A DNA stretch of 20,000 nucleotides from Takakia lepidozioides (taxonomy: Eukaryota; Plantae; Bryophyta), in the NCBI GenBank assembly GCA_030704615.1, contig JAKLZA010000108.1:1-20000 (forward strand), in the 5' to 3' direction. The translations under genes and the position numbers were made by a program. The notes below the pieces were generated by a model that saw only the letters and a program-made list of their open reading frames with translations, searched no databases and was not told where the DNA came from. Below, in pieces: positions 908-19,990 of the stretch (within the stretch, counting starts at the first letter, position 1; each line of letters opens with the position of its first letter).

Positions 908-2677
908 TTGGGAGAGAGGAATAGACATAGGGAATCATCTGGACCTCTCACACCATTAAGATCAAAGAGTACATCACCCATACCGGAAGAACTAGAGTTG
1001 GATGCCACTCCTTCTGTTTCTTTGCAAGAAAGATTAAGGGAATTGGTACAGGAAGAAGATCAATCACGAGGTGAAAGATCTGAGGTACATCCCTGGATAA
1101 AAGATTTGACAGAAATCTTTGATAAGAGTTGGCATGGAACACCAAAAGCAGGAACTCCAGTTTCTGAAGCAGAAGGAAGAAGAAGGAGAAGAGGATGTGG
1201 CAGAGCCAACGGAGAGTTCAGACTCTCCAACACCATTACAGTTGAGTTACATGAGTGAAGAAGAAACCCAAGGGCAGAACTTGGAGGATGAAAACAGAGA
1301 GAAGAAATTGGAAGAGGAAGAGGAAGAAGAAGAAGTAGACCCAACAGCTGAGGTTGAGACTACAACTAGGACATCCCAACCCGTTGGACCTGGATCAAGT
1401 GGAGCACTTGGATCACAGGCCAACGAAGGTGTCGGCTCAGGGGGATCAGGCGGGCTGCCTGGATCTGGCTCTGGGGGGACAGGGAGTGTGGGAAGTAGTG
1501 CAACTGAAGCTGGGAATACTGTGAATATCGTGGGGCCAGAAGCAGGGAGTGCTCAAGGGCCACCACTTGGTGGAAGATCCACCACAAAAACAACAGGTCC
1601 AGAAGGACCAGCACCAGCAAGGGTGCCAGCACCTGTCAGTGGGCAGAAGGTAGGGCCACAGATGGCGTTACAACCAACACGGGCAAAACCACCCTTTCCA
1701 ATATATTCAGGAAAAGGGGATCCCGATGTACACATTAGCCAATTTGAGCACATGTGTATAGTGAACAATGAGAATGGCGATGATGCCAAGATGAGATTGT
1801 TTCCTTGTTCACTCATCAAGAAAGCAAGTGAATGGTATGCAAGATTCCCTGATAATCATTTCCTAACCTGGAATGGCTTGAGTACAGCATTTCGAAATAG
1901 GTTCAGGACAAGTAAAACTGAAGATGAAGTGTATGGAAGTTTTTACAACAGTTAAAGCAAAGAAGCATGAAACTGTTGAGGAGTATATGGAAAAGATGGA
2001 ATTGATGATGAAAAAGCTGGCTGCAGTACCAGCACCCGGTTACAGAAGACTTGGTTTGTGAGTGGACTAAGACCAGAGTTGCAAAAGAAAGTGGATATGT
2101 TATCCCATAATACAGTGGAGGAGGCATTTGAAACTGCAAACAGAATGTGCAATTGGGAATGCTCAGGAGAGAGAAAAAGGAAGATGAGGACTCTGAGGAT
2201 GAGTCAGATGAAGAGAAGAGCAAGAACTAAAAAGAAAGAGTAAGAGAAAGGAGAAGTTGAAGAGGGATAACTATGAAAAAAATTGGAAGAAATCTTGAAG
2301 AAGTATGCCACAGAGGCTGTAACACATTGGAGGAAGGGTGTATGGTGTGCAAAGTGCCAGAATGAAGGCCATACCACCACAGAATGCCACATGAAGGAGA
2401 AACACTGTACTATCTGTAAAATGGATAACCATTCTACTGAGAATTGTTACTACAACAGAAGGACAGCTGCAAGAGAACCTAGGCAAGTAAGGGTGCATCA
2501 GGTGCAGCCCAGCCAAGAAGAAACAATGATCAGGACCACTATTGTAGGTCTGGTGGTTATAACAATGGATGGAAGGGAGAGGTAATTCAAGAAATAATCC
2601 CAAACAAGACCAAGGGCGAGGACCCAATGGTGAGAGCTATGTTACTATTGTAATCAGCCCGGACATCGCAAGGACAG
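908..2677 (+). pseudogene. gag: Frameshifted gag of a second LTR retrotransposon, truncated at its third zinc knuckle
   Basis: Retrotransposon capsid-like segment FPIYSGKGDPDVHISQFE...LFPCSLIKKASEWY...TWNGLSTAFRNRF (ORF 1119-1955), then ETVEEY...FVSGLRPEL in shifted frames. CCHC knuckles CAKCQNEGHTTTEC and CTICKMDNHSTENC, and a third, CYYCNQPGHRKDS, cut off at ~2677. No pol follows. Confidence 0.85.
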
Positions 2678-5313: not shown

Positions 5314-6172
5314 TCCGAAAATGGCTAAGTCCCTGAACGGCAATAGGGCCTACAACTGGAAAATGGCGCCGAATTTCCACTTCAGGGCCAGCCAGTCTAG
5401 GGACTTAGCCCGAAAATGGCTAAGTCCCTGAACGCAATAGGGCCTGGAACTGGAAAACGGCGCCGAATTTCCAGTTCAGGGCCAACCAGTCTAGGGACTT
5501 AGCCCGAAAATGGCTAAGTCCCTGGACGGCAATAGGGCCTAACTAGAAACGGCGCCGAATTTCCAGTTCCGGGCCAGCCACCCTAGGGACTTAGCACGAA
5601 AATGGCTAAGTCCCTGGAACGGCAATAGGGCCTAGAACTGGAAAACGGCGCCGAATTTCCAGTTCCGGGCCAGCCACCCTAGGGACTTAGCACGAAATGG
5701 CTAAGTCCCTGGACGGCAATAGGGCCTAGAACTGGAAAACGGCGCCGAATTTCCAGTTCCGGGCCAGCCACCCTAGGGACTTAGCCCGAAAATGGCTAAG
5801 TCCCTGAACGGCAATAGGGCCTACAACTGGAAAATGGCGCCGATTTCCACTTCAGGGCCAGCCAGTCTAGGGACTTAGCCCGAAAATGGCTAAGTCCCTG
5901 AACGGCAATAGGGCCTGGAACTGGAAATGGCGTCGAATTTCCAGTTCAGGGCCAGCCAGTCTAGGGACTTAGCCCGAAAATGGCTAAGTCCCTGGACGGC
6001 AATAGGGCCTAGAACTGGAAAACGGCGCCGAATTTCCAATTCCGGGCCAGCCACCCTAGGGACTTAGACCGAAAATGGCTAAGTCCCTGGACAGCAATAG
6101 GGCCTGGAACTGGAAAATGGCGCCGAATTTCAGTTCCGGGCCAGCCAGTCTAGGGACTTAGCCATTTTCGGA
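5314..6172. repeat. Tandem array of 9 x ~95-bp palindromic units inside a predicted intron
   Basis: atggctaagtccct recurs at about 5321, 5416, 5510, 5602, 5697, 5792, 5886, 5980 and 6076. Each unit is gctaagtccct...ctggaaa-ggcgcc-tttcca(g/c)...agggacttagc. The array is bounded by a 21-bp inverted repeat (5314-5334 / 6152-6172). Confidence 0.95.
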
Positions 6173-6426: not shown

Positions 6427-6511
6427 TGTCGTGCGCATACATATCGCTACACAACTACATCGCTGTCCAAACCACACCACACATATATGCACAATAAAGT
6501 AGTCTAGCACA
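6427..6511 (-). repeat. Extra copy of the first 85 bp of the LTR, joined to the end of the 3' LTR
   Basis: Identical (85/85) to 6870-6954. Confidence 0.9.
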
Positions 6512-6512
6512 A

Positions 6513-6954
6513 TGATAAACAAAGCTAAAAAGGACATACACTTCCAACACAAGAAATATGAAATCCATCGCTATCACTCATTGAAACTGAAGTCGAGCCA
6601 GGGGCACCCCAAGCTATGGGGACTCCACCCCACAACAACCTACATCCCTACATAAGCACACTCAAACCTAAACATGCAGGAGCTCGGTCGCGCAGGCTCA
6701 ACTCGAGAGAGATGAGCCGCGCGACTGCCGCTCTCGTGAAGATAAGACAGACCAGGTGTCAAACTAAACTTGACACCTGATTTAACACTTGACCTAAATC
6801 CAAGTGTTAAATACAAATAACTAGTTTTATTCTAGCTGTTTTCACACTGTGCTTATTTAACTTGACAGCTGTCGTGCGCATACATATCGCTACACAACTA
6901 CATCGCTGTCCAAACCACACCACACATATATGCACAATAAAGTAGTCTAGCACA
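6513..6954 (-). repeat. 3' LTR, 442 bp, TG...CA
   Basis: On the minus strand it starts TGTGCTAG 2 nt after the PPT and ends GTTTATCA. Its last 76 bp match 17850-17926, which is followed by the putative PBS. Confidence 0.8.
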
Positions 6955-6956
6955 AT

Positions 6957-6965
6957 CGCCCCCCT
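6957..6965 (-). promoter_or_regulatory. Polypurine tract
   Basis: Minus strand reads aggggggcg-at-TG at the LTR start. Confidence 0.75.
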
Positions 6966-7214: not shown

Positions 7215-10200
7215 CTATCCAATGCAATGTGGACATAACCAATCCCCATCCGGAACCATCTCAAGAGGTGGAGTCAAGCATCCCATATGCCAACCTCTAG
7301 AGCACCGATCACATACCAGCATGGTGGCTGCCCCTTTAGCAGACCCACACAACATGCACCTCAAACCTGCAGATACCACTGCCAGGTTTGGGTCAATCCT
7401 GCCATCGACATTCGGAAGGTGACATGGCGCACAATTACGCACATGGTCCTTCCAAGTGATGCCATCCCGACCCTCCAAGACCAAGACGCCTGAGGGCAAG
7501 ACCTCTCGAACCCTCAAAATAACACGTCCTGCAGTCACATCCAGGGTCGTAGGAGCAGTCTGCTGCAGATAGACATAGTCACCAGGGTTGAATCTCCGAA
7601 CCCCAGGACGATAGCCCCCACCACGTATGGTAGCATACCTCAACGTATCACGGTGTTGTGCAATGGCAAGGTTCTCGAAAGCCATGGGCATGACTCTCTT
7701 GAACAACTCTGCACGCTGCTCACATGCACGTGCCCACACGTCCGGATCGTCAAGGTTAAGAACTGTAGCAGCTTCTCTGCGAATGGATGTAGGCAAATCC
7801 GGCTCTCGGCCAAAGAGAAGAAAGTATGGTGAGAAGGAGGCAAGTGATGCTTGCTTGCTGAACCTGTAGCCCATGGCTAACCAGGGTAACTGAAGGTCCC
7901 AATCTCCTAGGTGTCCCTTCTGCAAGCCATACTTGCGCAAACCCCTCTTTACTGTCTGAACAACTCTCTCTGCCAAGCCATCGGCTTCAGGATGATCCCG
8001 AGAAGTGGTGCGGTGGTCTATCAAGGCCTTTGTCACACAAAGCCTGAAACTCCCCCAAGAACTCTCTCCCTTGGTCCGTGAGTACCTCAGCTGGAGCACC
8101 GAATCGGCTAAGCACACAATCCAAGAATGCATACGCAGCTCCCTCACTAGCCTTATCAGGCAATGGAACCAATTCAATCCACTTGGAGAAGTGCTCCACC
8201 ATCACCAACACGTACTTGTTGTGGCGCATGGTCAGTGGCAACGGCCCTGCGAAGTCAAGACTCCACCTGTAGCCCAATCCCATGATCGGAAGAGGGTGCA
8301 ATTGTGGAGTAGGGGCGTTGAATGAAGCACGCACCCTGTCACACACCATGCACCTAGCCACAAAGTGTTGTACCTCTGTGTGCATACCACGCCACCAATA
8401 CTGCCCCTGCAGTAGACTATGAGTGCGTCGCACCCCAAAATGCCCCAACTCCTCATGGGCATGCCGCACTAACCGTGCCCGCTGTGTTGGGTGAGGCACA
8501 ATCCTCACTCGACCATCCTCCCACACTCGGAGCAGGTGTGTCCCCTCCCACCTGAACCTCTTGGCTCGTTGTAGGATCCGATCCCTCTCCTTGGCAGTCA
8601 TAGTGGCTGCCGTGTCTCCACTGCGGAGGTAGTCCAACACAACTGAATCCTCATGTATATCTTTGGCGCCACCCTGCTCATTGCTGGCCTCAGGGTCCTC
8701 AGACACTTGATCTACAGTCATCCCTGTTGTAGGTCCAACCTGGCCTTCCGCTGCCAAGATACACAGAAATGCAGATGCATGCCATCCGGGCACCATCTCC
8801 TCGTCCGTCTCACCATGCCACCGAGCTCCAGTGTCATCCTGCTGGCTCGTGCATGGATTGCGACTCAACCCATCTGCATTTCGATTGACCAAACCCGGTC
8901 GATGCACCACCTGAAAGTCATACTCTTGAAGGATGAGTGCCCACCGTGCAAGCTTCCCCGTAAGCTTGTCTGACTCCATCAACCACTTGAGTGGTTGGTG
9001 ATCCGTGACAAGGGTGAAGAGATTGCCGTATAAATAGCACCTGAAGTGTGCCACGGCCCACACTGCAGCTAAGCATTCTCCCTCATATGAGCTATACTTA
9101 GACTCTGCAGCATTGTTCGAGCGGCTAGCATAAGCCACTACGAACTCTCTTCCCTCATCATCCACCTGTGTGAGCACCGCTCCAAGCCCCAGCATGCTCC
9201 AATCTGTATGCAGCTGAAAAGGACGCCCCCTGATAGGTCGTCTCAAGATGGGCGCCGAGGTCAACCTCGCCTTGAGCTCTTGAAAAGCTTGTTCTTGCTC
9301 ATCTTCCCACTGCCACTCCTGGTCCACCTTGGTCAGCTTGGTTAGAGCCTTTGCAATGGCACTAAATCCCTTAACAAACCGTCTGTAATAGTTTGCTAAC
9401 CCCATGAAAGCTCGAACTCGGCTCACATCCGTGGGGCGTGGAACCTGTGCAATGGACTCTACCTTAGTCTGCTGTACCCCCAATCCTCCAGGATATATCA
9501 TGTGACCCAGATACTCAATCTGGTTGTGGAAAAACTTGCACTTGCCCGGATGTAACTTCAATCCGTGCGTCCTCAAGCGCTCAAATACCCCTGAAGGTGT
9601 CTCTCATGCTCCTCCACCGTAGCACTAAAGATGATGATGTCATCTATGTAGCACCGAGCAAACTCCACCCCTGCTAGAATCCTGTCCATGACTCTTTGAA
9701 ACTCAGCGGGAGCGTTTTTAAGCCCAAATGGTAAGAACCGCCACTGGTATAGGCAATCCTTCCCGTGCTCATTGATCCCCCAGAATGCCGTCTTTTGCTT
9801 ATCCGCCTCCTTGATCGGCAACTGGTGATATCCGGATCGTAAATCCAACGTGCTAAAGACCTTGGAATGCCCAATGGCATCAAAGATCTCCTCTGGTGTT
9901 GGCATGGCATACCTATCGGACTTGGTCTGACGATTTACAGGCCGGTAATCACCGCACATACGTCTCTCCGTCCAATTGCCATAGACATCCTTCTTGCTGG
10001 CATCACTGTGGCTGAAGCATACTCTCCACCAGAGAGCTCCACCAAACCTGCCTCCCAGAGATCTTGAGTCCTCATCTGAATCAAAGACCTCTCCATGTCA
10101 CTGTATCTATAGGGTCTCCGAAAGATTGGCGTGTCAGTGGCCAACTCAATACGGATCTCTTGACCCTTCAGTGCTCCCAAGTCCTTCAAACTGAAGGCAA

Positions 10201-10348
10201 AGCAATTCCTGTAAGCCCTCAGGAACCGCCGTATACGTCGTCTCTCTCCTCCGGTGACAATGGGTCCAATATCAGGCTCCCAATTGTCCTCCGTAACTGC
10301 AACCTTAAGTCCAGTGGGCTTAGAGGTAGAGGACGCGTCCCGTGGTTG
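7215..10348 (-). CDS. pol: pol: reverse transcriptase, RNase H, integrase and PHD finger (three 1-nt frameshifts)
   Basis: RT: RMCGDYRPVN, LDLRSGYHQ, LPFGLKNAP, YIDD (9650-9639). RNase H: LHTDWS...YEGECLA...TDH...ADGLSR. Integrase: HHCC, SLDF, TDQG, GLAER. Frameshifts near 9990, 9585 and 8027. Confidence 0.93.
7224..7358 (-). other. PHD finger (C4HC3) at the integrase C-terminus
   Basis: CMLCGSAKGAATMLVCDRCSRGWHMGCLTPPLEMVPDGDWLCPHC has all eight ligands and the conserved Trp. Confidence 0.93.
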
Positions 10349-10635
10349 CTATGCTGCAACCTCTTGAGCAGTACCCCCTTCCTGCTCAGTCAATGACAAG
10401 GCCTCATCCTGCCCCATCATCTCATCATTGAGAACCTCCTCATCCCGAGAAGAATCCCCAACCTCATCCATCACAGCTGCCTTCGCTGCCAACTCCCTCT
10501 GAACCTCGAGCACCTCCCACATGTGCCATGGATGTCTACACCTCGTGGTCCTCACCGGCTCGCCCCCACTCGCTGCCTGTACCGTCTCGGTAGGCAGAGA
10601 GACCATCAAGGGAAGTGCACTCCGCACTCTACGTT

Positions 10636-11594
10636 GCTCAGCCATAGCCAAGCTGACAATCCAGGTCAAGCAATTGAGATCCATTGCTTGCCCCAACACC
10701 TGACGACGTGATGCCTCAGAAAGAGAAGGCACCGCCGTGGTCCCAGTGGAAAACCCCATAGCCCGCTCTCGCTCGTCGGCATTAGGCTCCACTAACTGCT
10801 GCAACTGAGCATCCCACAGGAGGCCAGGTCCACCATCCCGAAAAGCATGGGATCCTGGGAAGCTGAGCAGTGTAGGTAATGCTGCTCGTGGTTGACCCAC
10901 CCTGTTGACCACTGCCAAAGGGAACGGTCATCGTGTCTCACACGTTGAGACTGCCTTCCTGTGTCCAAAATGCCATCCACGGTGAGGTGTGCTGGCCGCT
11001 GCACCCCATCAAATGCACGCTTGAGCAGTGCGGGTGGCATCAAGTTAGTCCACCATAGTCGTGGACGATGAGCCCGTGACCCCACTGCAGCTGCATCCAG
11101 CAATACTGCTGACCCAAGCCACGACCGGACTTGATGCACACTGGCCATCACCCTGGCCCGAGAATCACCCATCAGTGGCACATTCTCCAAGATGTATGCC
11201 GGAGATACAGCCTGATGAAGCTGCAAGTGGCGCAAAATCCGCACCATCTCCCAAAACAGACCCGTCCTCGAGTCTCGCAATCCATTGCCATGCCCGGCTG
11301 ATGAATGCCCTTGGCAGGGCCAACCTGCCACTACCAGATCAATGGAGCCAACCCGCTCCAAATCCTGCGCCCCCAGCAACGAAATGTCTGCTGGCAAGGC
11401 TGCTGATATCCACGAACTGCAGACACCTGCAACAACTCAGGGTGCTGCTGCACCATCTGAGCCACATGGCGCAGTGAGACGCGTCGTGCAGTCTCATCCC
11501 TCTCCACATACAGGTAACGCCTTACCCGCACACCTGCCTGTAGCACAGCAGCCAATCCGGTGCTGATCCCGCCAAACAAGTCCAGAAGGCAAAT
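10636..11594 (-). CDS. C5 cytosine DNA methyltransferase domain (DNMT3/DRM-like) within the polyprotein
   Basis: Motif I LDLFGGIS, II YVERD, IV IDLVVAGWPCQGHS (PCQ at 11319-11311), VI ILENV, VIII RAHRPRLWWTNL, IX ERERAMGFSTGTT, X RRQVLGQAMD. 1-nt frameshifts at ~11395 and ~10920. Confidence 0.95.
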
Positions 11595-11989
11595 GCCTTC
11601 ATCCGGCCGCTGCCACACAAGAGGTGTGGTGTCCAATGGCGACAACTGAGGTGGCCCTGGTGCAATCACCGCACTCTCCTCCTCTCCTGACGGTACAAAA
11701 GCTTCTACCCAAGCTTGTTGCACCCGTCCATCAGCAGCTTGCTGCAAATCCTTGCTCGTACCCCACAACGGAGTGTGAGCAACCATGGCAGGCAACTCCG
11801 CCGTACCATGCATGTCATCCTGCTCTGCTGGAGGTGGCACATCCTCTGCATGGGCATTGCCTTCCAGCAACTCTCCAGGCCAACTAACTGCAGCTGTGAA
11901 GGCGGCTAGTGTTGGCATCTTGCCCCGCTGGGCAGCTGCAATACCCCCAATGAATGTCACAGGGAGCTGTGCACGGCGACCATCCCCTG

Positions 11990-12330
11990 ACTGCCATCCA
12001 GGCCTGTAGGATGCTGACTCCTCCCAGAAATCCAGGGTGAAGCCCATGGGGTATAACACTGCCCCACCAACGAGGACATCGTAAGAGACCGCGTCTGTCA
12101 CAATGGCCTTGGCTCGCATCACTGAGCCATCTACAGGATGATCCGGCTGCAGTCTAATAGCCAACTGATGCCGTGTCATGCCGCGAGCCTGCTCTGATCC
12201 TCCCAGAGATGTCTGTATCTGGAAAGGACAAGGCTCCATATCCGCCTCCATGAGGCCCAAACCTGCAATAGCAGCTCTGCCCAACATCAGTGGCTGAGCT
12301 CCTGAGTCCAACAAGACCCGCAGTGGCCGG
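11990..12330 (-). CDS. Retroviral-type aspartic protease domain
   Basis: VLLDSGAQPLML (DSG at 12308-12300)...YDVLVGGAVL, in the same ORF (11331-13022) as DNMT motif I. Confidence 0.88.
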
Positions 12331-12999: not shown

Positions 13000-14556
13000 T
13001 CAGGAGCAGGAGGTGGGACCATCCCGCCTGGGAGCCGGTACCGCCTGAGCTATAGCCATGGCAGCGAGCCTCTGCTCTAGCTGCTGAAGCCGATTGGCCA
13101 TGCCTTGGTCAACACCCTGACCTCCGCGTCCTTGGCCATGTGGAGCTTGCCCTTGGCCTGCACCTCGTGCCCGACCACCTCGTCCTCTTTGGGCTGGTCC
13201 ACCTCGCCCCCGGCCACCATTGTTCCCTTGGAACTGGCCTGGGCGCAACTCAGGATGCAAGTCATAACACTGGGCATCTCCATGCCCATACTTGCCACAA
13301 TGCCCACACTGCAACTGTGCAGGCTGTGCTTGTGCCGGCCTTCTGCCACTCTCTGGGCAATCTCTCTTGACATGGGGTCCTCCACATGTCCAACATATCA
13401 CCCCTGGTTGCTGTTGGCCTGCAAAAGATGCCACGGGCCTCTGCACCTGAGGTCCCCTGTAAGCTCCATGGAACTTGGGCTGGGCAACCTTGCCCCCCTG
13501 ACCACGCTGTTGGGCAGTCCCTTGTGCTTGTGGGCTGACAGCTGTGCCCCGTACAGGCATGTCCTTGCCAAATCCAATTGTAACAACTCGCTCCTCCACC
13601 ATGTTGAGCTCAATCCGCTCAGCCAGCAGAAACACATCTGCTAATGTGGGTTGGGCTGCTTGTAACAGGGTTGCATCTCGCACCCTTCTCTTGAGCTCCT
13701 TGTCCAGAATTCCATACCAAAACTGGATTGCCTGAGCTTCAGTAACCCCTTGGGTCACACTTATCAAGCGCCTCATACGAGTGTACGCCTCTCGCAGGCT
13801 CTCACTGGGTTTGCGCTGGAAGTCTTGCAAACTTCGCAGCTTCTCTGTCCGTACACCTTGGTAGTTCCTCCGCAACTCCTGGAAGAACTCCACCACCGGG
13901 TTGAATCTAGGCACATGTGTTGTAGCTGTGGCAGGAGGAGTAGTAGCACCTTCTGAACTGGTACCACCTGCAGAAGTACCAGCACTACCTGCTCCACTAC
14001 TAGTGCTGGCAGTGGGAGCTATTGGTACTGATGCAGCTACTGGTCGCGTCATGCCTCGAGTAATGGAGATGTAGTCAGGTGACCAATACATCCTCCACTC
14101 CTCAATCTCTGCTTCATGTCCTCGCCTGAACTCGTGGTAATCGTCCATAGGCGGGCCTTCCAAATGCTGGAACAGTCCCTTCCACGCCATGAATGGGGTG
14201 AATAGATGTGGATTGCGCATCTGCTGCAAATCACACCAGCTGTCGAACTCCTGGATAAAGTCATCCAACTCGATTGTGCCCACAGCTCCAGAGTACCTAC
14301 GAGGCCCCTTGGTAGCTCCATACATCTCCTCCATGTCGTCCCACAACAATGGCGAATGAAAGTGCACACCTGTTGATGAAGCCTCCGAGCCTGTGTCTGA
14401 CTCTACAGTAATTGAGGGTGGCGGTGAAGGTGGTCTGAACCGAATACCTCGTCTTGTGAACCCACTCTCACTGTTACTGCCTGTAGCCGTACTCCCCTCA
14501 AAACCCTTGGGTAACTCCGTAATGACACTCACAATGTGCACCTCCTCCAGTGACAC
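13000..14556 (-). CDS. gag: gag of the DNMT-bearing element
   Basis: QRKPSESLREAYTR (major-homology-like), FWYGIL, knuckles CWTCGGPHVKRDC and CGHCGKYGHGDAQC, and an RGG-rich tail. The true start may be the internal ATG (MEEMYG). Confidence 0.9.
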   Translation of the reverse strand: MSLEEVHIVSVITELPKGFEGSTATGSNSESGFTRRGIRFRPPSPPPSITVESDTGSEASSTGVHFHSPLLWDDMEEMYGATKGPRRYSGAVGTIELDDFIQEFDSWCDLQQMRNPHLFTPFMAWKGLFQHLEGPPMDDYHEFRRGHEAEIEEWRMYWSPDYISITRGMTRPVAASVPIAPTASTSSGAGSAGTSAGGTSSEGATTPPATATTHVPRFNPVVEFFQELRRNYQGVRTEKLRSLQDFQRKPSESLREAYTRMRRLISVTQGVTEAQAIQFWYGILDKELKRRVRDATLLQAAQPTLADVFLLAERIELNMVEERVVTIGFGKDMPVRGTAVSPQAQGTAQQRGQGGKVAQPKFHGAYRGPQVQRPVASFAGQQQPGVICWTCGGPHVKRDCPESGRRPAQAQPAQLQCGHCGKYGHGDAQCYDLHPELRPGQFQGNNGGRGRGGPAQRGRGGRARGAGQGQAPHGQGRGGQGVDQGMANRLQQLEQRLAAMAIAQAVPAPRRDGPTSCS

Positions 14557-15067: not shown

Positions 15068-15904
15068 CTATGCTATCAACTTCCAGACTTCTCTCAAAGT
15101 ACCTCGCTCTGCTTGATGGTAAGGTGTAGGAGGTATATCTATGTCCAGAAACCTGCCACTAACCTTGTCCCAAGCTACAGTAGCTCGCTCTAACCAACCC
15201 TCCTCCTCTTTCTGCCAGGTAGAGACAAAGCAACACTCTGCTATCTCCCGCTCACTGAACACTAAAGAAAACAAAGGTAGGGTCTGATAGTCTCTCAACT
15301 CGAAAGCTTTGAGACGGTTGCGGGTGTCTTCATTGCGAATGACTGCATCGCCTTCAAACAGAACAAACTTGTCCTCGCTAATGAACCCCCGCTCGTGGTT
15401 GCCTTGTGCAGAGCGTGTCCGACTGCAACACTGTCTAATTGCACAAACTTGTGCAGCTCCTGCTCCTCTGCTCCAGTACACCACGGCCTTGTGGCTGAAC
15501 ACCTTGGTCCCCGGTGCTGTCTTTGGCTGTGTTCCAAGCCTAGCTTTCACCCACTTTGGTATTTCACCTACAGCTGCAGAACTGCTGGCTCCAACAGAGT
15601 TCTGACTGTCCAAGGCGATATTGAGGCCCTCAATGCCAACTACAGCAGTCTGTTGTCTACTGCTAATGCCTGACTCCCAGTATGCAATCAACTCGTCCAA
15701 CTGTTCTCCACTCAAATCAGTCTGAGTTCCTTGGGAAACATAGATCCTGTCCCCTTGTGTGCACAGGCTAAGAGAAGAGACCTGCCCTTCAATTACATCC
15801 TCATTTCCCCCAGCCATACAGGGAGTACATCCACAGGTTTGTCTCTCATATAGGCCAGCACAGGTTCTAGAAACAGGATTGTGGATATTTCGTGGCACAC
15901 TCAC
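15068..15904 (-). CDS. Extra ORF upstream of gag, unknown function
   Basis: Uninterrupted 278-codon ORF, co-oriented with gag, between the PBS and gag. Globular-looking C-terminal half; no recognisable motif. Confidence 0.55.
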   Translation of the reverse strand: MSVPRNIHNPVSRTCAGLYERQTCGCTPCMAGGNEDVIEGQVSSLSLCTQGDRIYVSQGTQTDLSGEQLDELIAYWESGISSRQQTAVVGIEGLNIALDSQNSVGASSSAAVGEIPKWVKARLGTQPKTAPGTKVFSHKAVVYWSRGAGAAQVCAIRQCCSRTRSAQGNHERGFISEDKFVLFEGDAVIRNEDTRNRLKAFELRDYQTLPLFSLVFSEREIAECCFVSTWQKEEEGWLERATVAWDKVSGRFLDIDIPPTPYHQAERGTLREVWKLIA

Positions 15905-16427
15905 ACTCTAAAAATTCCATAGATTTTTAGCAGAGTCCCCAAAACAGAAACCAGGTTTAGATAGGTAGATTTCCCCTTTCTGTAGGTCCCTGTGCAAATT
16001 TGAGGTCAAACAGCCTTTGTATGACCAAGTTATGGCAAAAACAGGCTCTGTATAATTTAAATTGGATCAAAGCAAAGCTCCAAATGTATTTCAATAAATA
16101 CAAGTATTTTTGGCGTACCCTACATGTTTCATGCGAATACCCGTAATTCCGAGGACGGATCTCTACATATGCAGGAGCTTTAAAACTGGGAGTCGGGGAT
16201 TTGCTACTGGTCGGTGTAGGAAAGAAAACTTCGCAGTCTGGTGCCAAGCGTCACGAATACCACTCCAAGCAGCGATGGCCTAATGCCCAAGATCCTGTCT
16301 TAACTGCGTGATTTGTTCAATCAATGGAGCCCCTTCAAGCAACTGCTTCGGTCGTTTGTACTGATCATGTCTTCTTAGCTAGCCCCCCACCCTGCCCCCT
16401 CCCTCTCACATTGTGTCAGATGAACAC

Positions 16428-16674
16428 CTTAGCACGGAAGAGGCCATCGAGCAGAATTGACATCACGGTGGACATAGTGGGCCTTGGTGTAATCGTGGAT
16501 GTACTCCAGCCCCCTCGCTACATCCAAGGCTATCTGCACTCTGCCTGACCACGGTAATGGCCGATGCCCATTTGCAGCAGCGTTATGAAGACGATCGGTG
16601 AGAGCTCCCTTCTCAACCAACTCGTAAACCAGGAACAGACTAGTCTCACCTGCCGAATATCCGATCAACTCCGC
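16428..16674 (-). pseudogene. Isolated exon of a LysM receptor-like kinase (CERK1/LYK-like), kinase subdomains IV-VII
   Basis: [24 protein letters not shown]...[33 protein letters not shown], then after a short deletion [10 protein letters not shown]. Bounded by AG (16676-16675) and GT (16427-16426). Confidence 0.85.
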
Positions 16675-17833
16675 CTTCGGTGGAACAACCCAACTCACAA
16701 AGAATTCAGACCAGTTCCCAACGTATCTGGAGCGACCCTGGAAATTGTATTCTCGCACGGTACATTTGGGAGTAATTGTTAACCCAACTGGCTGGCTTCC
16801 TTGGTTGGGTACCTTTGCATTCAAGACCCTTTTTTATGCAGAGTATCAAAGCAGGCGGTCTCATGGGGTCTCATACAGGTCCACGCAAATCACCAGTCCA
16901 AAGGTGGCCGACCACTTTTCAGGCTTCAAACACCTGGCTACCAGGTACATGAATCAATGGGTTTTATACTTCGCTCTGATTTCTTCAATAGCTGATGTCG
17001 TAGCTTCCTTTGTCTGGAATGTCGCTTAGACAATCGTCTTCTGCATCCCTCATGTTGATGCAAAAGATCCGCAAGCTGGAGAATTTTTTTAAGACAAATA
17101 AAATAAAATAAAACCCAATGTGACCAGCAGCAGCCGACAGAGGCTGATAGGTGGCAGACCTCCTACTAGCTCTCCAGCAGCCCGCAGTAGTTTGAACCTT
17201 CCACCCTGAGCCTAGCAGGCATGAAGAAGGGCGGGAATCTTCCAGCTTCCCCGAATGATACACCCGATGCAGTGAAAATCAGAATAATACAAAGCTCTAC
17301 CCTGTTTCCACAAGAAAATCGCAGTGATAGAGACGTCCCAGTGAAATGATATTGCTCAAGAGTTGACGCATTACATCACCAATAAGTACAATCGACATCT
17401 GCACGCATTGGCTGATGACGTGCAATCCAACACGATGCCCAGGTAGCAGTTCCGCACACTGTCACCGCCTGCTCTACATTCTCGTGGCCTCACTAGCCCC
17501 AATACATGCTTCTACTTGTGCTCGACTCGGTGATTTCAGATGCCACTAGTACTTGGACCGGCCCCCATGGTGAAGATTGAACCTGCTCGACCTTCAGTGT
17601 CCGGCAATGCACCGGTTAACCTATATTACGGGAAGCAATACCTTCTTTCAACAATATGGGCTTCTCAGTTCAGCCCCTTCCAACAACCTTGTACAAAGCA
17701 AAGCATTCTGTTCTCGACAGATATATATATAGATTACATAATTCTCCACTTCACCAGCTCTCAAACAAGCTTTGAAACAAAAACAAGTATACTAGTGCTA
17801 ACTAAAAACTCACATCTAGCACTGACAATGCAA

Positions 17834-17849
17834 GCTCATCTCTCTCGAG
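17834..17849 (-). promoter_or_regulatory. Putative self-priming primer-binding site
   Basis: Directly follows the LTR-terminal CA. It has no TGG. 17834-17850 is the exact reverse complement of LTR positions 6701-6717. Confidence 0.65.
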
Positions 17850-17926
17850 TGATAAACAAAGCTAAAAAGGACATACACTTCCAACACAAGAAATATGAAA
17901 TCCATCGCTATCACTCATTGAAAACT
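17850..17926 (-). repeat. 5' LTR remnant (last 77 bp only)
   Basis: Matches 6513-6588 except for one extra A in an A-run. Confidence 0.88.
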
Positions 17927-18070: not shown

Positions 18071-18280
18071 GCATGAGCGGAACGAAATATCATGAGCACA
18101 ACTGTCAAAACTGCAATTTTCCCTTCGGGGCCGAATAATATATTTGTTTTTCCTGACACATTGCATTAAATTATTGTTTTTTATTGTTTTTTATTCTCGA
18201 AATTTGTACTTCTGCTCATGAAAACCGATTGTCTTACTACTCCGCTCATGCCGCTCATGCTCATGAAATAGCAAACCTCG
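18071..18280. repeat. Right TIR-like end / MITE-like segment with CATGAGC(GG) repeats
   Basis: ccgctcatgccgctcatgctcatgaaatagcaaacctcg (18242-18280) is an imperfect inverse of 2688-2746. Forward catgagc copies occur at 18072 and 18081, and the core is AT-rich. Confidence 0.55.
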
Positions 18281-18880
18281 AGTAAGGTTCATGGGTATGA
18301 TTGTAAGCCAACCGGTGGTATCATTGCAAACTTGATGACAAGGGGCATTGTCTATGAAAAAAGGACTGGACAAAAACTCAATTGGGCAGCATACACGGCA
18401 TGGACAACTAAGCAACAAGAAAGAATGAAGGAGCATCGAGAAACAAAGGACCCTGGCAGCACAGACAGTAAGCCAAAGCTAGGAGTTTGTGAATTGAAAG
18501 ACAGGCTACGCAAAACCCCAGGTAGAGGCAAAGAAGGACTGATACAAACGCCTGAGCAAGTGATTGCAGAGATAGAAAGGAAAAAACATGAGCAAGAGTA
18601 TGTGGCAACTGCTCTAGCGAGTCTTCAGGAACTACATGATTTGAAGTATGAGGAGATGTGTGGGGCAAAGGAAGAGTTGGAGAGGTTAAAGAAAGGGAAG
18701 TTGGACTTGATGGAGAAGACGCGGACTGTTCGGGTGCAAATGGAAGACAGACAATGGTGTCTTGCAGAGTGTCGGAACAAGATTGCAGACCTAGAGGCCA
18801 AACTCACCCACAAGGGTGCCACAATCCGAGCCGAGGAAGAGACCTTAATGCAAAAGGGGAAGAGAGTGTTGGGTTACTGA
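18281..18880 (+). CDS. 5'-truncated coiled-coil protein, probably TE-associated
   Basis: The frame is open from the TIR boundary (SKVHGYDCKPTGG...KLNWAAYTAW), followed by an E/K/L heptad-rich tract. No family recognised. Confidence 0.4.
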   Translation, partial: SKVHGYDCKPTGGIIANLMTRGIVYEKRTGQKLNWAAYTAWTTKQQERMKEHRETKDPGSTDSKPKLGVCELKDRLRKTPGRGKEGLIQTPEQVIAEIERKKHEQEYVATALASLQELHDLKYEEMCGAKEELERLKKGKLDLMEKTRTVRVQMEDRQWCLAECRNKIADLEAKLTHKGATIRAEEETLMQKGKRVLGY

Positions 18881-19674: not shown

Positions 19675-19990
19675 GGGGAGTCCTTATTGAGGAGTGTCAT
19701 TCTTAACTAGAATTCTGAGTCTTCAGTCATGTGGAGTGTGAGTCCAAGTGCTGACTCATGTGGAGTATGAGTCGATGTGTTTAGTCATGGGGAGTGTGAG
19801 TCCACTTGCTGACTAATTATTGGGAGTATGAGTCCTTAATGATTTCCACTGATTTCCAGTTTGGAATCAGAGTCCTGTGGAGGGTCAGTCCATGTGCTTA
19901 ATCATGTGGAGTGTGAGTCCAACTGCAAAATAATGGATGTGGAATGCGAGTCCTTATTGAGGAGCTTGCTTCTCAACTTGGAATCTGAGT
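19675..19990. repeat. Degenerate short direct repeats (catgtggagtgtgagtcc-like, locally ~29-30 bp spacing)
   Basis: Copies near 19728, 19757, 19786, 19820, 19903 and 19937; gagtccttattgaggag occurs at 19678 and 19948. Confidence 0.7.

Follow-up and report, generated by a model that had tools for sequence, protein, structure and literature searches.

The stretch of DNA analysed here (20,000 nt, hereafter the window) raises the question of whether an LTR retrotransposon, apparently from a land plant, encodes a cytosine methyltransferase (MTase) of its own, and what such an enzyme could be for. Since 2018 the role of retrotransposon-borne DNA methyltransferases (DNMTs) has been an open question, and the hosts in which they were known have been hard to work on. 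The original prediction had placed a DNMT3-like C5-MTase between the protease and the reverse transcriptase (RT) of such an element.

A Ty3/Gypsy retrotransposon with a methyltransferase domain

The window element is a multi-copy Ty3/Gypsy retrotransposon with a DNMT3-type C5-MTase in its gag-protease frame. Its coding span runs on the minus strand from about 14334 to 7215 and comprises gag, protease, cytosine MTase, RT, RNase H, integrase and a PHD finger (Table 1). The order gag-protease-RT-RNase H-integrase, the DDE integrase, the polypurine tract (PPT), the TG...CA ends and a short target duplication are those of a Ty3/Gypsy element, the duplication being taken from relatives and the window copy itself being 5'-truncated. 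Membership of DIRS/Ngaro was rejected, as no tyrosine recombinase was matched by Pfam in the 14 scanned ORFs and an rve integrase is present instead; so was membership of the chromoviruses, as the integrase is followed not by a chromodomain but by the PHD finger. No tRNA genes were found within the window.

Table 1. Positions of the features in the window, in the direction of the element
Feature	Position	Strand	Basis or remark
5' repeat A1, only last 74 nt, ends CA	17850..17923	-	self-BLAST; identical to 6513-6586
Primer-site position, self-priming candidate	17834..17849	-	16 nt with complementarity to an internal part of repeat A
Single-copy DNA within element 5' part	16008..17675	.	depth contrast
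LYK3-type LysM receptor-kinase exon, frame-broken	16425-16671	-	between primer site and 5' region of element
279-codon open frame, multi-copy 5' region	15068..15907	-	coding status only putative
gag, two zinc-knuckle-like motifs	13042..14334	-	54% identity to Marchantia Mp4g09160 residues 1-417
Aspartic protease, motif LLDSG (12314-12300)	12033..12326	-	Pfam and motif
DNMT3-like C5 cytosine MTase, unpermuted I-X, catalytic Cys and Glu present	10619..11600	-	Pfam, motifs, fold of relative
MTase motif I, LDLFGG	11585-11568	-	
MTase motif II, YVERD	11510-11496	-	
MTase motif III, PADI	11394-11383	-	
MTase motif IV, AGWPCQ	11328-11311	-	
MTase motif VI, LENV	11190-11179	-	
MTase motif VIII, RPRLWW	11067-11050	-	
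MTase motif IX, ERERAMG	10774-10754	-	
MTase motif X, LGQAMD	10696-10679	-	
Conserved in-frame stop, end of ORF1 gag-PR-DNMT	10343..10351	-	CARYYA-type context (TAG CAA CCA)
Reverse transcriptase, YIDD (9650-9639)	9520..10147	-	Pfam and motif
RNase H	8860..9234	-	PF17917, E 2.7e-36
Integrase, zinc finger and DDE core	7815..8475	-	Pfam and motif
C-terminal PHD finger after integrase	7218..7376	-	PF00628, E 6.7e-11
Polypurine tract	6957..6965	-	
Repeat B1, 87 nt	6870..6956	-	
10-bp palindrome GACAGCTGTC at B1/A2 joint, element ends joined over GC	6864..6873	.	candidate integrase cut site
Repeat A2, ~355 nt	6513..6867	-	stretch complementary to primer site at 6702-6717
Repeat B2, element 3' end (GACA)	6427..6513	-	87/87 nt identical to B1

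The window copy contains six frame breaks, near 13015, 11400, 10921, 9995, 9587 and 8029, of which those near 11400 and 10921 fall in the DNMT, those near 9995 and 9587 in the RT and that near 8029 in the integrase; no nonsense codons were found within its domain matches. Whether these breaks are real or assembly errors has to be weighed between length variation of the family contigs at each of the six sites (four public runs, at most two samples), together with the identical repeats, and single-copy contigs that match the window almost gap-free. Contig depth in X6 was 116-342 for element contigs (four listed records) and 7-8 for single-copy DNA (three records), values that separate multi-copy from single-copy DNA and are not a copy number. 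This contrast bears out the expectation that the element is multi-copy, and depth over the DNMT is as high as over the RT.

The 279-codon frame upstream of gag has no family in Pfam, Atlas or the locus comparison; a TraN-type identity for it was dropped, the Atlas matches lying below 0.9 at low recognition.

Nature and conservation of the methyltransferase domain

Every MTase motif that had been named in the retroelement coding region was recovered in place and in unpermuted order, and motif I shares one ORF with the protease motif, as had been predicted. Consistent with this, PF00145 matched the middle piece of the DNMT with an E-value of 1e-13 and 51.9 bits against a cut-off of 22. The further claim, that the DNMT lies between protease and RT in one polyprotein, stood for the position but not for the continuity: in the window copy the domain is spread over three frame pieces, and a TAG codon (10351-10349, followed by CAA CCA to 10343) separates it from the RT.

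The predicted combination of DNMT3-like character and unpermuted order is upheld by the ranking of PDB profiles, by Foldseek matches and by the motif order itself. In a search of the PDB with a 15-row family profile, DNMT3A (E 6e-21) scored ahead of DRM (6e-10), HhaI (2e-7) and DNMT2 (1e-5); with this profile, as with a Calypogeia relative as query, DNMT3A/B came first, followed by DRM, bacterial enzymes and DNMT2. Identity as a DRM enzyme was rejected, as DRM is circularly permuted and the window domain runs from motif I to motif X. The evidence on the fold comes from a model of the stop-free DNMT domain of a relative, locus L001, and not from the window copy; it reached a pLDDT of 89, and the Foldseek matches listed were all DNMT3A/B/C. 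Locus L001 as a whole is not one open frame, having two stops.

Of 97 aligned domains, 92 retain the catalytic Cys and 94 the ENV Glu, and the Cys, Glu, Arg and SAM-binding motif are nearly invariant. The original prediction had made its case depend on a dN/dS that is not close to 1, and comparison of the window with four diverged loci (L001, L007, L008 and L011) gave pN values of 0.17-0.21 against saturated synonymous sites (pS 0.74-0.77). Among decayed Sphagnum-type copies dN/dS was 0.37-0.83 for the DNMT and 0.20-0.67 for the RT. The window almost certainly holds a genuine DNMT3-type domain under purifying selection. Base composition added little: CpG depletion is unspecific (o/e 0.50 in the element versus 0.17 in the other gag of the window, where no DNMT was seen), and CpG and CHG o/e were uninformative.

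The element family and its relatives

A search with the DNMT gave 25 proteins; those with a named source come from Calypogeia, Marchantia and Sphagnum and are 54-71% identical. The matches listed from an RNase H-integrase search (120 of 1345) include Coleochaete, Klebsormidium, Closterium, Chlamydomonas, Pleodorina, Tetrabaena and Haematococcus. Two layouts occur, protease-DNMT-RT, in which the named members are streptophytes, and RT-RNase H-DNMT-integrase, in which they are chlorophytes. In the DNMT tree (support 91) as in the RT tree (100), a single branch separates the two layouts. Both trees drew FastTree warnings of long-branch joins, and 33 of the 120 RT rows were re-run with IQ-TREE; this placed the window RT-RNase H as sister to L001, Marchantia and a Sphagnum-type copy (99/95), with one unnamed protein and then Coleochaete outside that group.

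Kinship with Klebsormidium elements had been suggested, and K. nitens KFL_009030040, which is presumably the published KnitGypsy-Dnmt3 element, does have the protease-DNMT-RT order and falls in the same DNMT group. In the DNMT tree, for which the outgroups were bacterial-type only, it groups with the window at 91 (unstarred); in the IQ-TREE RT tree K. nitens sits in an open fork. The proposed land-plant host, in particular a non-seed plant, is likely, given the RT-RNase H grouping with Marchantia and Sphagnum-type sequences and the LysM exon, but it is not proven: a charophyte is conceivable, since there are close relatives in Coleochaete (71% identity over RNase H-integrase) and in Spirogloea (60% identity across a portion of the DNMT).

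Among 70 metagenome loci, seven are distant enzymes without retroelement domains; of the other 63, 56 have retroelement domains beside the DNMT and seven have the DNMT alone. Clustering at 50% gave 237 clusters at an E-value of 1e-30 or better, and 74 of 78 long representatives among the best 150 clusters carry retroelement domains. The DNMT is kept in relatives, its retention in other copies being a point on which the original prediction had also staked its case, but it is not universal in the clade: K. nitens P0083 and Tetrabaena P0064 showed none. The DNMT-bearing family is real, under selection and old, and the window element belongs, as a recent copy, to an old Ty3/Gypsy lineage of green plants.

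The catalytic Cys and Glu are both lost in Chlamydomonas P0144 (CHLRE_09g398141v5), Pleodorina P0089, and P0096. In these three volvocine proteins a DNMT-like domain lies between RNase H and integrase; Pfam misses it in P0144 and P0089. One clade member, P0175 (CAA9586175.1), is deposited under an uncultured cyanobacterium, probably through bin contamination, and four Marchantia copies (P0337, P0338, P0339 and P0342) are on the V sex chromosome. An IMG/VR scan gave 22 candidates, none of which was confirmed.

A conserved stop codon between DNMT and RT

The stop that separates DNMT and RT in the window recurs, in the frame of the RT and with a context of CA(A)CC type, in all 28 sequences compared (16 TAG, 12 TAA). 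Besides the window, the set comprises 27 of the 28 loci with both domains, L017 being omitted for its interrupted linker, and it amounts to about 20 distinct insertions plus the window, in four lineages. Between lineages the DNMT-RT linker varies in length with its frame preserved, and apart from the single stop it is open in all four. The linkers of the window and L001 are 51% identical overall, and 12 nt at the stop are among their two longest identical runs. Five Marchantia models of 1278-1281 aa, four of them with all motif patterns, terminate at the matching position. Three Marchantia models bridge the stop, each skipping a different stretch, and in the relatives P0040, P0047, P0061 and P0078 the DNMT runs into the RT with no stop.

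The conservation of the stop in all 28 sequences indicates that ORF1 is gag-PR-DNMT, and the DNMT would then be made at the level of Gag; the RT is in the frame of the DNMT, so that readthrough would join them. CARYYA is a known readthrough signal according to the available part of PMC3441728. Judged from these sequence features, the RT-integrase-PHD part is probably made by occasional readthrough of the conserved stop. In 24 of 25 Sphagnum-type copies an ATG lies two codons past the stop, where the context is CAACCC rather than CARYYA, and reinitiation is therefore conceivable in these copies; P0026, P0028 and P0029 begin with MP near the stop. The window and L001 have no ATG just after it.

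Split ends and a palindromic joint

Twin identical full LTRs were sought and rejected, the structure being A...B-GC-A-B or A...B instead; a normal 5' LTR near 16000 was dropped as no twin LTR was found there. The 3' end of the window element has the order PPT, B1, GC, A2, B2, and where its A1 is truncated, A is complete in relatives, at about 340 nt. The DIRS-like A-coding-B-A-B repeats of KnitGypsy-Dnmt3 are found in the window, in L010 and, up to its contig end, in L007; the two-joint end is seen in these three copies only. L010 is a complete A1...B1-GC-A2-B2 between 4-bp target duplications, and L030, L036 and L016/L022 have the A...B form with duplications.

TGTC...GACA ends with 4-bp duplications occur in L010, L003, L036 and L016/L022 (3/4 bp in L030); all 12 of 12 5' ends start with TGTC after host DNA, none with B, and 12 of the 14 B ends listed finish with GACA. 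The target duplications abut TGTC and GACA, never ends defined by the PPT or the primer site. At the B/A joint stands the palindrome GACAGCTGTC (window, L007, L010 and the chlorophyte-type L050) or GTCAGCTGAC (L046/L047); in the window, in L007 and L010 and in two loci of chlorophyte type, L046 and L050, a palindrome comes after the PPT. The A2/B2 joint differs by 0-2 nt between lineages, which is what joined ends would give. The 16-nt complementarity of the primer site has a chance probability of about 1e-7.

Retroviral integrases can cut palindromic circle junctions. Together, the split ends, the palindrome, the 4-bp duplications and the self-complementary primer site point to self-priming and to integrase cutting of an LTR circle. 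Integration from such a circle, opened at the palindrome, appears a better-than-even proposition, the route being drawn from three copies and the published Klebsormidium structure.

Within L003 (13098-13240; the same insertion as L013) an A end is followed by 9 nt from the primer site, a few letters and then directly by B; this looks like either a circle junction that kept its primer ends or an internal deletion.

The PHD finger

The best PDB matches of the PHD finger are CHD4, PHF12, KDM5 PHD1, ATXR5, DPF3, BHC80 and UHRF1. The PHD pattern was found in 87 of 144 proteins, in none of which a Trp stands two before the zinc His (79 have Gly), and a PHD is present in 96 among the 120 of 1345 RNase H-integrase matches listed. 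By sequence, the finger is of the CHD4/KDM5-PHD1/BHC80/UHRF1 kind, without the cage tryptophan of H3K4me3 readers. We take such features to mark readers of unmodified H3 tails, and the finger of the element would presumably share that preference.

Neighbouring DNA

The LysM receptor-kinase exon is possibly captured host DNA. Its named rows among the 120 matches listed are all from land plants (Marchantia and Diphasiastrum at 65-68% identity), and no further LysM receptor-kinase exons were found within the window. Directly past the 3' end of the element, a 94-bp satellite unit that itself contains inverted repeats occurs nine times (5315-6163), and letters related to it precede 18046 in some contigs. 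The window also contains a second, unrelated gag with zinc knuckles (1110-2585, plus strand, CpG o/e 0.17), a 202-codon coiled-coil-like frame in a multi-copy region (18272-18880, plus strand) and a 29-bp tandem repeat at 19727-19835.

A model for the element and its alternatives

In the model that we favour, with a probability of roughly 0.55, DNMT made from ORF1 would be released by the protease, packaged at Gag-like amounts and methylate the element's own cDNA in the particle; taken by itself, cDNA as the main substrate has about even odds. Occasional readthrough of the stop would supply RT-RNase H-integrase-PHD. The element RNA would prime itself, and standard reverse transcription would give a linear DNA with B-GC-A as the LTR at both ends. 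Closure of this DNA would yield a two-LTR circle, and cutting of the palindrome in the 5' LTR by integrase would produce A...B-GC-A-B; the A...B form could come from a one-LTR circle or from recombination between B1 and B2. The integrated forms would then correspond to circles with two LTRs or one that have been opened at the palindrome and so are circularly permuted. The PHD finger may steer integration toward nucleosomes with an unmodified H3 tail, and the new copy would arrive methylated and so look like host chromatin, or stay quiet.

That the domain is a piece of host DNMT3 caught by chance or misassembly in one dead copy can practically be dismissed: six frame breaks and a single-copy host exon in the window copy would suit such an origin, but the retroelement domains beside the DNMT in the metagenome loci and cluster representatives, the equal depth over DNMT and RT, and purifying selection argue against it. 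It is rather unlikely that Pol is made by splicing across the stop or by reinitiation, and that the split ends come from ordinary LTR copies that recombined, instead of from circle integration. Ogre elements splice over a stop, and the post-stop ATG of Sphagnum-type copies, the MP starts of three proteins and the bridging Marchantia models could all be read in this way; however, the ATG is missing from the window and L001, the linker is single-stop, open and in frame in four lineages, the bridging models skip different stretches, and the position of the target duplications, with no 5' end beginning with B, speaks against LTR recombination.

The conserved stop also favours methylation of cDNA in the particle over an integrase-tethered enzyme that marks the insertion site. 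Action of the DNMT in the nucleus in trans, after release from the abundant ORF1 product, on the insertion site, other copies or host loci and with the PHD serving as the ADD of DNMT3, is improbable. The DNMT3 fold, the PHD of unmodified-H3-reader kind in 96 of the 120 relatives listed and the DNMT adjoining integrase in chlorophyte-type elements would accord with it, but the PHD lies beyond the stop, at the integrase end, so that most DNMT molecules would be without it, and the K. nitens methylome is described as ordinary and plant-like despite such elements in the available part of PMC5890265. More improbable still is that the domain persists for binding nucleic acid or in a structural role, or as an enzyme acting on RNA, with DNA methylation secondary. 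Catalytically dead versions do persist in volvocine elements, and the Klebsormidium domain produced no methylation in yeast, a result that its authors judge inconclusive (PMC5890265, available part); against this stands the near-invariance of the Cys, Glu, Arg and SAM-binding motif.

Returning to packaging in the particle, the position of the stop predicts where, and in what amount, the enzyme acts. Marchantia polymorpha has several full-length gag-PR-DNMT frames, annotated as hypothetical proteins, which brings the question within reach of a genetic model. The structure of the ends points to DDE integration from circles, and finders of twin LTRs would miss the family; copies of the element can also confuse inventories of bryophyte methyltransferases. 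The full combination, a Gypsy lineage as old as the green plants with MTase-loaded particles via a readthrough stop, self-priming and a DDE-cut LTR circle at an internal palindrome, is put forward tentatively, with the odds somewhat against it. If true, it would be a replication route between the retroviral and DIRS types, with full-length gag-PR-DNMT frames in Marchantia.

Comparison with known systems

Elements of this kind have been known since 2018. The conserved stop, the palindromic split ends and the land-plant members are apparently undescribed, no description of them being found in the literature searched, outside which most subscription papers and Repbase lie. What follows draws on the available parts of the sources cited, and of PMC12885004, PMC11982613, PMC6673714 and 10.1101/2021.02.12.428880. 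The literature available on the Phygy and Selgy lineages (REXdb) mentions neither PHD nor DNMT.

SymbioDIRS-Dnmt3 and SymbioLINE-Dnmt of Symbiodinium (PMC5890265) are likewise DNMTs borne by retrotransposons, and SymbioDIRS-Dnmt3, which has split repeats, carries out de novo CG methylation in yeast (PMC5890265). These are tyrosine-recombinase or LINE elements, whereas the window element has a DDE integrase, with 4-bp duplications in its relatives. The EpiLTRs of Cymbomonas and Euglena (10.64898/2026.05.21.726589) also combine an LTR element with a DNMT and a histone reader, but their DNMT is sister to DNMT4 and is accompanied by DAM and a chromodomain, in contrast to the DNMT3-type domain and PHD found here. 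The self-priming Gypsy elements Tf1/Sushi and Tcn1 likewise have a primer site that is complementary to their 5' repeat; they are chromoviruses with ordinary twin LTRs, and the available part of PMC6317226 reports no DNMT for them. A PHD in a green-lineage Gypsy polyprotein is known from Gypsy-7a_cRei of Chlamydomonas (10.1101/2022.06.16.496473), in the available part of which no MTase is described.

The closest match is KnitGypsy-Dnmt3, known from Klebsormidium only in de Mendoza et al. 2018 (PMC5890265), where its repeats are DIRS-like; 'streptophytes' are given as the host range in PMC12344493 and in 10.64898/2026.05.21.726589 ('Gypsy-DNMT3'). The PHD, the palindromic joint, the self-priming site and the chlorophyte branch go unmentioned in the available text of PMC5890265, the figures or supplement of which may show a PHD or termini. 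Both elements have the Gypsy domain set, an intronless, unpermuted Dnmt3-type domain under purifying selection and the A-coding-B-A-B arrangement (PMC5890265). They differ in that the host of the window element is likely a land plant, and in that the DNMT of KnitGypsy-Dnmt3 lies in the Pol ORF, whereas here it lies in the Gag-protease ORF, before the conserved stop.
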